64,000 nucleotides of DNA from an uncultured Tenacibaculum sp. (GCA_947496185.1 CANMCD010000009.1:88115-152114); one strand, 5' to 3'; shown: positions 15,828-15,903, numbered from the stretch's first letter. The notes: generated by a model not told the origin, from the letters alone. Numbers and translations are program-made.

Positions 15828-15903
15828 TACGCGAAAAGAAAAAAAAGGTACGCGAAAAGAAAAAAAAGGTACGCGAAAAGAAAAAAAAGGTACGCGAAAA
15901 GAA
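15828..15903 (+). repeat. Perfect 21-bp tandem repeat TACGCGAAAAGAAAAAAAAGG x3.6
   Basis: Units at 15828, 15849, 15870, partial at 15891; ends 5 bp before AraC ATG (15909). Confidence 0.97.

Follow-up and report, generated by a model that had tools for sequence, protein, structure and literature searches.

The AraC protein at araI (I1-I2) and XylS at Om bind as dimers to two direct repeats, of which the proximal one touches the -35 region. In the siderophore regulators PchR, AlcR, and Btr, activation of uptake is combined with repression of the regulator's own gene. MelR of Escherichia coli, in the divergent melR-melAB region, has four sites upstream of its target promoter, a site near its own promoter gives autorepression, and the sites are non-identical, 18 bp long, and arranged as inverted pairs together with a remote site R. 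The TTTTGAT heptads of Vibrio cholerae ctx, which overlap sites for an AraC-family activator, and the 7-bp repeats of Haemophilus influenzae hmw vary in copy number among strains and thereby change promoter output. To our knowledge, the regulation of siderophore systems in Bacteroidota has barely been studied. The Btr dimer occupies two direct repeats beside the -35 element of feuA, its target being a siderophore uptake operon (PMC3333878), and YbtA activates uptake and represses its own gene (PMC8725597). In synthetic yeast constructs, decoy arrays of additional tandem transcription factor sites sequester the activator and sharpen the dose-response (PMC3322331).

The locus described here lies within a 64,000-nucleotide stretch of DNA from an uncultured Tenacibaculum sp. 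(hereafter the window, in which all coordinates are counted; Table 1). It resembles araI, Om, and Btr/feuA in its direct repeats of 21-bp period, in a proximal repeat at a predicted position of -36, and in the double-HTH AraC-family protein encoded next to them, and it differs from them in its half-site, TACGCAAAACGGAAT, in its Bacteroidetes sigma-A promoter (TAnnTTTG), and in a putative set of four identical in-phase half-sites. As in the PchR, YbtA, AlcR, and Btr systems, the regulator is encoded in or beside a siderophore cluster, divergently from a receptor or transport operon, with the repeats in the shared control region, but it belongs to none of these families: all NCBIfam equivalog matches to named siderophore-regulator families are far below cut-off and confined to the HTH domain, the Btr model reaching 52 bits where 900 are required. 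MelR, with a four-site operator in a divergent region, is the best-known multi-site precedent, although its sites form neither a perfect head-to-tail array nor the product of a recent duplication. The ctx and hmw repeats are likewise tandem repeats in a control region, but their units are 7 bp long and their variation is documented, whereas the unit in the window comprises a complete half-site plus spacer in 21 bp. The yeast decoy arrays differ in being eukaryotic, synthetic, of many more copies, and not adjacent to functional sites. The unusual feature of the window is the perfect head-to-tail amplification of complete half-site units, which keeps the helical phase, both positional anchors and, incidentally, the reading frame. 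No description of the half-site motif or of the regulator family was found in the searchable literature. The array is, in our judgment from comparative sequence data, probably the operator of the adjacent AraC-family regulator, amplified from two to four in-phase half-sites.

Table 1. Features of the divergent receptor/regulator locus in window coordinates; half-site scores are from the position weight matrix (PWM) of the family motif.
Feature	Position	Strand	Evidence or remark
XusB-like (DUF4374) lipoprotein gene	12052..13335	-	Pfam PF14298; gene order repeated in homologous loci
TonB-dependent siderophore receptor gene, 783 aa, first gene of a co-directional cluster	13355..15706	-	CarboxypepD_reg, Plug, and barrel domains
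Perfect 7-1-7 inverted repeat TAGCTAT-A-ATAGCTA in the predicted receptor-operon leader	15751..15765	.	Exact form unique in the genome
Candidate Bacteroidetes sigma-A -7 box of the receptor operon, TAATTATG	15797..15804	-	Motif with one mismatch; predicted TSS ~15792(-)
Candidate AraC-gene -7-like box, TAAGTTTA	15803-15810	+	One-mismatch motif match
Upstream in-frame ATG (array read as (YAKRKKR)n, 363-aa gene-caller form)	15813..15815	+	Not conserved in homologues
Candidate AraC-gene -7-like box, TAACTTTA	15818-15825	+	One-mismatch motif match; TTTG at 15793-15796, 21 nt upstream
Perfect array TACGCGAAAAGAAAAAAAAGG x 3.6, read as a probable expanded AraC-type operator	15828..15903	+	Tandem Repeats Finder, sequence, genome uniqueness
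Half-site 1, TACGCGAAAAGAAAA	15828..15842	+	15.7 bits; proximal to the receptor promoter, predicted -36 to -50 (unit 1: -36 to -56)
Half-site 2	15849..15863	+	15.7 bits; exactly 21 bp from site 1
Half-site 3 (extra relative to two-site homologous loci)	15870..15884	+	15.7 bits
Half-site 4, TACGCGAAAAGAATT	15891..15905	+	13.7 bits; -18 from ATG 15909
Regulator start codon backed by conservation (protein MGFKIY...)	15909..15911	+	~120 homologues aligned from Met
AraC-family regulator gene, 331 aa, cupin-like N-terminal domain and double-HTH DNA-binding domain	15909..16904	+	Pfam HTH_18, HTH_AraC; AF2

Read directly, the array consists of three full units and a 13-bp partial unit, TACGCGAAAAGAA, and Tandem Repeats Finder (TRF) scores it at 152, with 100% matches and 0 indels. 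The 5 bp between its end and ATG 15909 are TTTAT. The sequence-only reading had described a perfect 21-bp tandem array ending 5 bp before the AraC ATG, between divergent genes for a TonB-dependent receptor and an AraC-family protein; TRF and direct reading agree with the former, and domain searches confirm the latter. The unit has no second occurrence across the 3.99-Mb genome, and in a genome-wide TRF run the array is the only perfect short-unit array with a score above 70.

The regulator matches HTH_18 (1e-19) and HTH_AraC in Pfam and, in PDB profile searches, the DNA-binding domains of MarA, AraC, Rns, and ToxT, whereas neither Pfam nor PDB gave a sequence match to its N-terminal sensor domain. 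In its AF2 model (pLDDT 92) a cupin-like N-terminal domain is joined through a long linker helix to the double-HTH domain, and the full-length fold neighbours of the model are ToxT, Rns, CsvR, and CuxR. The best NCBIfam match of the divergent receptor is the myxochelin receptor MxcH, below cut-off, and the minus-strand genes that follow it encode the XusB-like protein, a MATE exporter, a 1092-aa protein, an ABC ATPase, a fatty-acyl-AMP ligase with a carrier domain, and a PKS-NRPS; judged by this domain content, the receptor-headed set is a siderophore-type biosynthesis and uptake cluster. The 1092-aa ORF (window 7159-10437, minus strand) returned no Pfam or NCBIfam match at E<=0.01. The context is conserved in homologous loci, where after a divergent receptor come an XusB-like gene and a gene for a small membrane protein, with a MATE exporter gene or genes of biosynthesis. 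In most loci the product of the divergent gene is a TonB-dependent receptor (CarboxypepD_reg, Plug), in some a MATE exporter or a siderophore-interacting reductase. The distribution of the locus is sporadic, since 60 relatives of the same genus and order contained no orthologue of the regulator, two distant paralogues only, and just four others among 400 genomes of the family carry the gene, the nearest relative being 55% identical. At a wider scale, the regulator family is found in four Bacteroidota lineages, namely Flavobacteriaceae, Cytophagales, Sphingobacteriales, and Saprospiraceae.

The evidence that the array is an operator comes from phylogenetic footprinting. Eighty homologous AraC loci were fetched from named genomes (Aquimarina, Flavivirga, Tenacibaculum, Psychroflexus, Fulvivirga, Flammeovirgaceae, Cyclobacteriaceae, Microscillaceae, Sphingobacterium, Pedobacter, Olivibacter, and Saprospiraceae among them) and their starts located; 72 distinct loci, excluding the window, were used to build a PWM, with which 73 distinct regions, the 72 loci and the window, were scanned. 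Upstream of the homologous AraC genes, immediately 5' of the ATG, there are two direct TACGC-AAAACGGAA repeats 21 bp apart (TACGC..CGGAAT), the half-site consensus of the family being the one given above. Exactly two sites were found in 53 of the 73 regions, one in 11, and none in 7. Paired sites were all on the AraC strand, and successive half-sites were spaced by exactly 21 bp in 57 of 58 cases. A 21-bp site pair was present in 55/73 loci, compared with no pair in any of 20 shuffles and none on the opposite strand. Sites scoring as highly as those in the window (15.7 and 13.7 bits) occur genome-wide at frequencies of 1.8e-6 and 4.5e-6 per position, respectively. Four phased sites were seen in the window only, at -81, -60, -39, and -18 relative to the AraC ATG, and more than two in none of the 72 other loci. 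Relative to the AraC ATG, the pair lies anywhere from -13 to -245, depending on the locus; in L025, L037, L040, and L051 the distal half-site lies at -18, as does site 4 of the window. In the nearest homologue (55% identity) the sequence TACGTAAAAAGAAAAAAAAAA TACGCGAAACGAAATATT ATG represents the two-site form, with an A-rich spacer matching the window unit. A MAFFT alignment of the whole intergenic regions set the two sites of the homologues against units 2-3 of the window in an arbitrary register, and anchored PWM positions were used in its place.

On this footprint, the identity of the array as an operator is well supported. What the comparison shows directly is the motif itself, its 21-bp phasing and strand, the two positional anchors, and the restriction of the four-site form to the window among the regions examined. 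The sequence-only reading had offered a phased operator array for the adjacent regulator as one of its explanations, and the operator part of that proposal is strongly supported, the conserved form having two half-sites and the four in the window being read as a lineage-specific, recent expansion. It had also suggested a search of the genome for the core of the unit upstream of other metal-uptake genes, and a whole-genome PWM scan returned no 21-bp-paired sites outside the AraC/receptor locus; this confinement of the pairs to a single locus of the window's genome points to a local regulator. The two direct half-sites, 21 bp from centre to centre, would lie on one face of the helix and presumably receive a dimer, with one double-HTH domain per half-site. 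The AraC-family protein is the presumed binding factor, and by analogy of arrangement it would activate the receptor/biosynthesis operon in response to siderophore and repress its own gene.

A very unlikely alternative is that the repeat serves another factor, or that it acts as an intrinsic promoter or curvature element, for example through phased A-tracts like those of an UP element. The consensus does place A4 tracts every 10-11 bp (TACGC-AAAA-CGGAAT-AAAA-CC) and would be prone to curvature, and the minus-strand unit junction (TAGGTTTT or TACCTTTT) is one mismatch from a -7 box, but the most informative positions of the PWM are the G/C cores ACGC and CGG and not the A-tracts, and the paired motif occurs solely beside this AraC subfamily and once in the window's genome. 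In addition, 21-bp direct repeats next to the -35 region characterize activators of the AraC/XylS type (PMC3333878).

A reservation on the operator reading itself is that the half-sites of the window depart from the consensus at 3-5 of 15 core positions (AAAAGAA vs AAACGGAA). The first recognition helix of the regulator (window 16767-16790) reads TNTSTLKK, whereas 68 of 71 relatives have TNE[FYC]TLKK and the other three have D for E. The Glu-to-Thr change and the off-consensus half-sites could alter the affinity of the regulator for its operator. A covariation between the recognition helix and the 3' part of the half-site was considered and set aside, the nearest homologue having the GA variant with an ordinary Glu.

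The positional relation of the operator to the divergent promoter is also conserved. Of 53 loci, 39 have the sequence CAAAnnTA, which is TAnnTTTG on the minus strand, at a gap of 23 nt to the first half-site and 10 have it at a gap of 22 nt, other offsets each accounting for 0-5 loci. In the window, CATAATTA lies at exactly 23 nt from position 15828, and the corresponding minus-strand box has its one mismatch to TAnnTTTG at a nearly invariant T. The -7 element of Bacteroidetes spans -12 to -5 (PMC6847099, PMC9723704), from which follows the predicted start of the receptor transcript; relative to this start the four units would lie at about -36/-56, -57/-77, -78/-98, and -99/-113. The arrangement predicts that the proximal half-site occupies the -33 region of the divergent receptor promoter, which is the geometry of a class-II activator. 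In the conserved form, a two-site operator at about -36 to -77 would thus stand in place of a -33 element and activate the divergent receptor operon, and the regulator bound directly before its own start codon would fit autorepression. A testable operator can accordingly be stated for Flavobacteriaceae, Cytophagales, Sphingobacteriales, and Saprospiraceae, namely TACGCAAAACGGAAT x 2 in 21-bp phase, 23 nt from a -7 box. A scan for sigma-70 promoters gave nothing relevant, being directed at the wrong promoter type for Bacteroidetes, and the TAnnTTTG scan was substituted for it.

Several further elements were noted between the divergent genes. In many loci (L027, L031, L034, L037, L094, and others) a plus-strand TAnnTTTG or TAnnTTTA box lies 4-5 nt from the minus-strand -7 box, and in these the divergent promoters would face and overlap each other, so that RNA polymerase could occupy only one at a time. 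The inverted repeat in the predicted receptor-operon leader, the region of which TRF also reports as AATAGCTAT x 2.2 at 15749-15768, may serve as a second operator or form an RNA hairpin; TAGCTAT-related motifs are present near the AraC genes of L039, L041, and L042. An RNA element was sought and rejected, with no Rfam match and a leader folding no better than shuffled sequences (z = +0.96). Most homologous loci (L026-L104) contain a palindrome, TTATTTAGAATnATTCTAAATAA, about 35-60 nt to the left of the first half-site. It comes immediately past the divergent -7 box, in the stretch from about +3 to +25 on the receptor transcript, and is a candidate box for a global repressor that may respond to iron. 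A good copy of this palindrome is absent at the window locus, and near-perfect copies are found elsewhere in the genome, for example at G000:C10:107255 and C14:30237.

The expansion from two to four half-sites is most likely explained by the operator's own structure. One full unit plus a partial unit was most likely the ancestral state, to judge from the two-site form of the nearest homologue and its matching A-rich spacer. The ancestral repeats, with at least 13 identical bases 21 bp apart, would have offered a substrate for slippage, and slipped-strand mispairing or unequal recombination between them would have added two 21-bp units; a direct-repeat operator would in this sense be a slippage substrate in itself. 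This would leave half-sites, all four in phase, at about -36, -57, -78, and -99. Growth inside the array does not disturb its two anchors, site 1 remaining 23 nt away from the -7 box and site 4 keeping its place at -18 from the ATG. From its perfect identity over 76 bp, the expansion, known from a single draft assembly, is judged recent on the scale of species divergence. As to its effect, the added sites may recruit a second dimer on the same helical face, which would give more cooperative or higher occupancy and, through a longer block ahead of the regulator's coding region, tighter autorepression. It is also possible, by analogy with the synthetic yeast arrays (PMC3322331), that sites 3 and 4 act as decoys, or the additional sites may have no effect and be selectively neutral. 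The window therefore offers a natural operator-amplification allele for asking how extra in-phase half-sites alter activation and autorepression by an AraC-type dimer.

The same perfect identity implies recent or ongoing slippage, and the sequence-only reading had raised the possibility of a contingency variable-number tandem repeat (VNTR) tuning cluster expression. In such a locus frequent slippage would change the number of units, and selection would use this to tune or switch the siderophore cluster, the regulator, or both. This is compatible with an operator function, and the position of the repeat in a control region, the preservation of helical phase and reading frame by each 21-bp step, and the occurrence of the expansion at this locus only among the 73 examined are all in keeping with it. 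However, an array of 3.6 copies of a 21-bp unit is expected to have a mutation rate far below that of homopolymer or tetranucleotide tracts, and the genome is without a repertoire of such arrays, in contrast to organisms that rely on repeat-mediated phase variation. Other alleles were also sought: an exact scan of genome contigs for the left array junction gave no match, an exact scan of metagenome contigs for the unit gave seven single-copy matches, whose unrelated flanks and different G+C mark them as chance occurrences, and exact-protein look-ups for the long AraC form, the short AraC form, and the receptor gave no second record. A contingency function is accordingly considered rather unlikely. 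It is extremely unlikely that the additional units are an artefact of assembly, in which a short tandem loop was mis-resolved at a locus with two half-sites in reality; the genome is a draft of 114 contigs, but ordinary reads are longer than the 76-bp array, which is located in the central part of a 194-kb contig, such errors rarely create perfectly phased extra units, and the unit is present on no alternative contig.

The array can also be read as protein. Translation from ATG 15813 gives MANFIY(AKRKKRY)3AKRIYMGFK..., opening MANFIYAKRKKRYAKRKKRYAKRKKRYAKRIYMGFK, and the sequence-only reading had proposed a variable Lys/Arg-rich N-terminal extension of the regulator. A start at this codon would give the regulator a strongly basic tail, (YAKRKKR)3-YAKR, which would affect its DNA affinity or its regulation. 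ATG 15813 is indeed in frame with the AraC ORF without an intervening stop, and the gene caller gave the 363-aa product, but the openness of this frame is automatic and uninformative, because the single T of the unit precedes AC and a stop codon is impossible in all three plus-strand frames of the array. The divisibility of the unit length by three likewise follows from a 21-bp unit of two helical turns. The tail is without conservation: for about 120 homologues, 324-333 aa long, the alignment begins at the Met of ATG 15909 (MGFKIY vs MGLKLH...), and in alignments of 68 and 11 sequences none has a Lys/Arg tail and all start at M33 of the long form. Start context, scored with a model trained on 676 unambiguous starts of the window's genome, favours ATG 15813 slightly, with a score of -0.4 (15th percentile of true starts) against -4.4 (1st percentile) for ATG 15909, a difference of about 4 bits. 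The base at -3 is A at ATG 15813 and T at ATG 15909, and A at -3 is a positive start determinant in Flavobacterium (PMC6847099). The poor context of ATG 15909 is, however, common to the homologues, since the operator abuts the ATG there as well.

The repeat is, moreover, explained as DNA, the motif being kept also at loci that have it in a different frame or at a distance of 200 nt from the ATG, and the confident tail helix of the AF2 model was obtained without alignment depth and is not evidence of translation. Either of the plus-strand -7-like boxes listed in Table 1, which are candidate motifs and not evidence of function, would place the start of the AraC transcript downstream of ATG 15813, so that two of three candidate plus-strand -7 boxes would begin transcripts lacking this codon. 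A translated tail is thus judged distinctly improbable, and the 363-aa model is probably an over-extension into the operator. Database entries for the homologues P0029 and P0047 have N-terminal extensions that read through their own operators, for example ...YGKRNNTNAKRNTM in P0047, which suggests that over-extension into the operator is a seemingly recurrent annotation effect in this family. There is a very slight chance that the array is both bound and translated, with transcripts from upstream of 15813 giving a regulator with a (YAKRKKR)n N-terminus. If so, each 21-bp slippage would alter the number of cis sites and the length of the basic tail on the trans factor together, and the locus would be a self-coupled, heritable tuning device for the siderophore cluster.

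Other repeats were encountered in the course of the TRF and genome scans. A second array of 21-bp period, with the unit CATCATGACCTGCTGCTTCAC, lies at window positions 63524-63579; it is imperfect (about 2.1-2.5 copies, 71-82% matches) and is probably a coding repeat. A 12-bp unit, CAGTTAGGGGTG, or its reverse complement is present in about three tandem copies at G000:C6:89327-89360 and G000:C59:317-354, one of these being at a contig end. Long tandem repeats with periods of 303, 447, and 357 bp, in 3-4 copies that are 95-98% identical, occur at G000:C4:209168-211472 and C4:287611-288987 and probably encode repeat-domain surface proteins.
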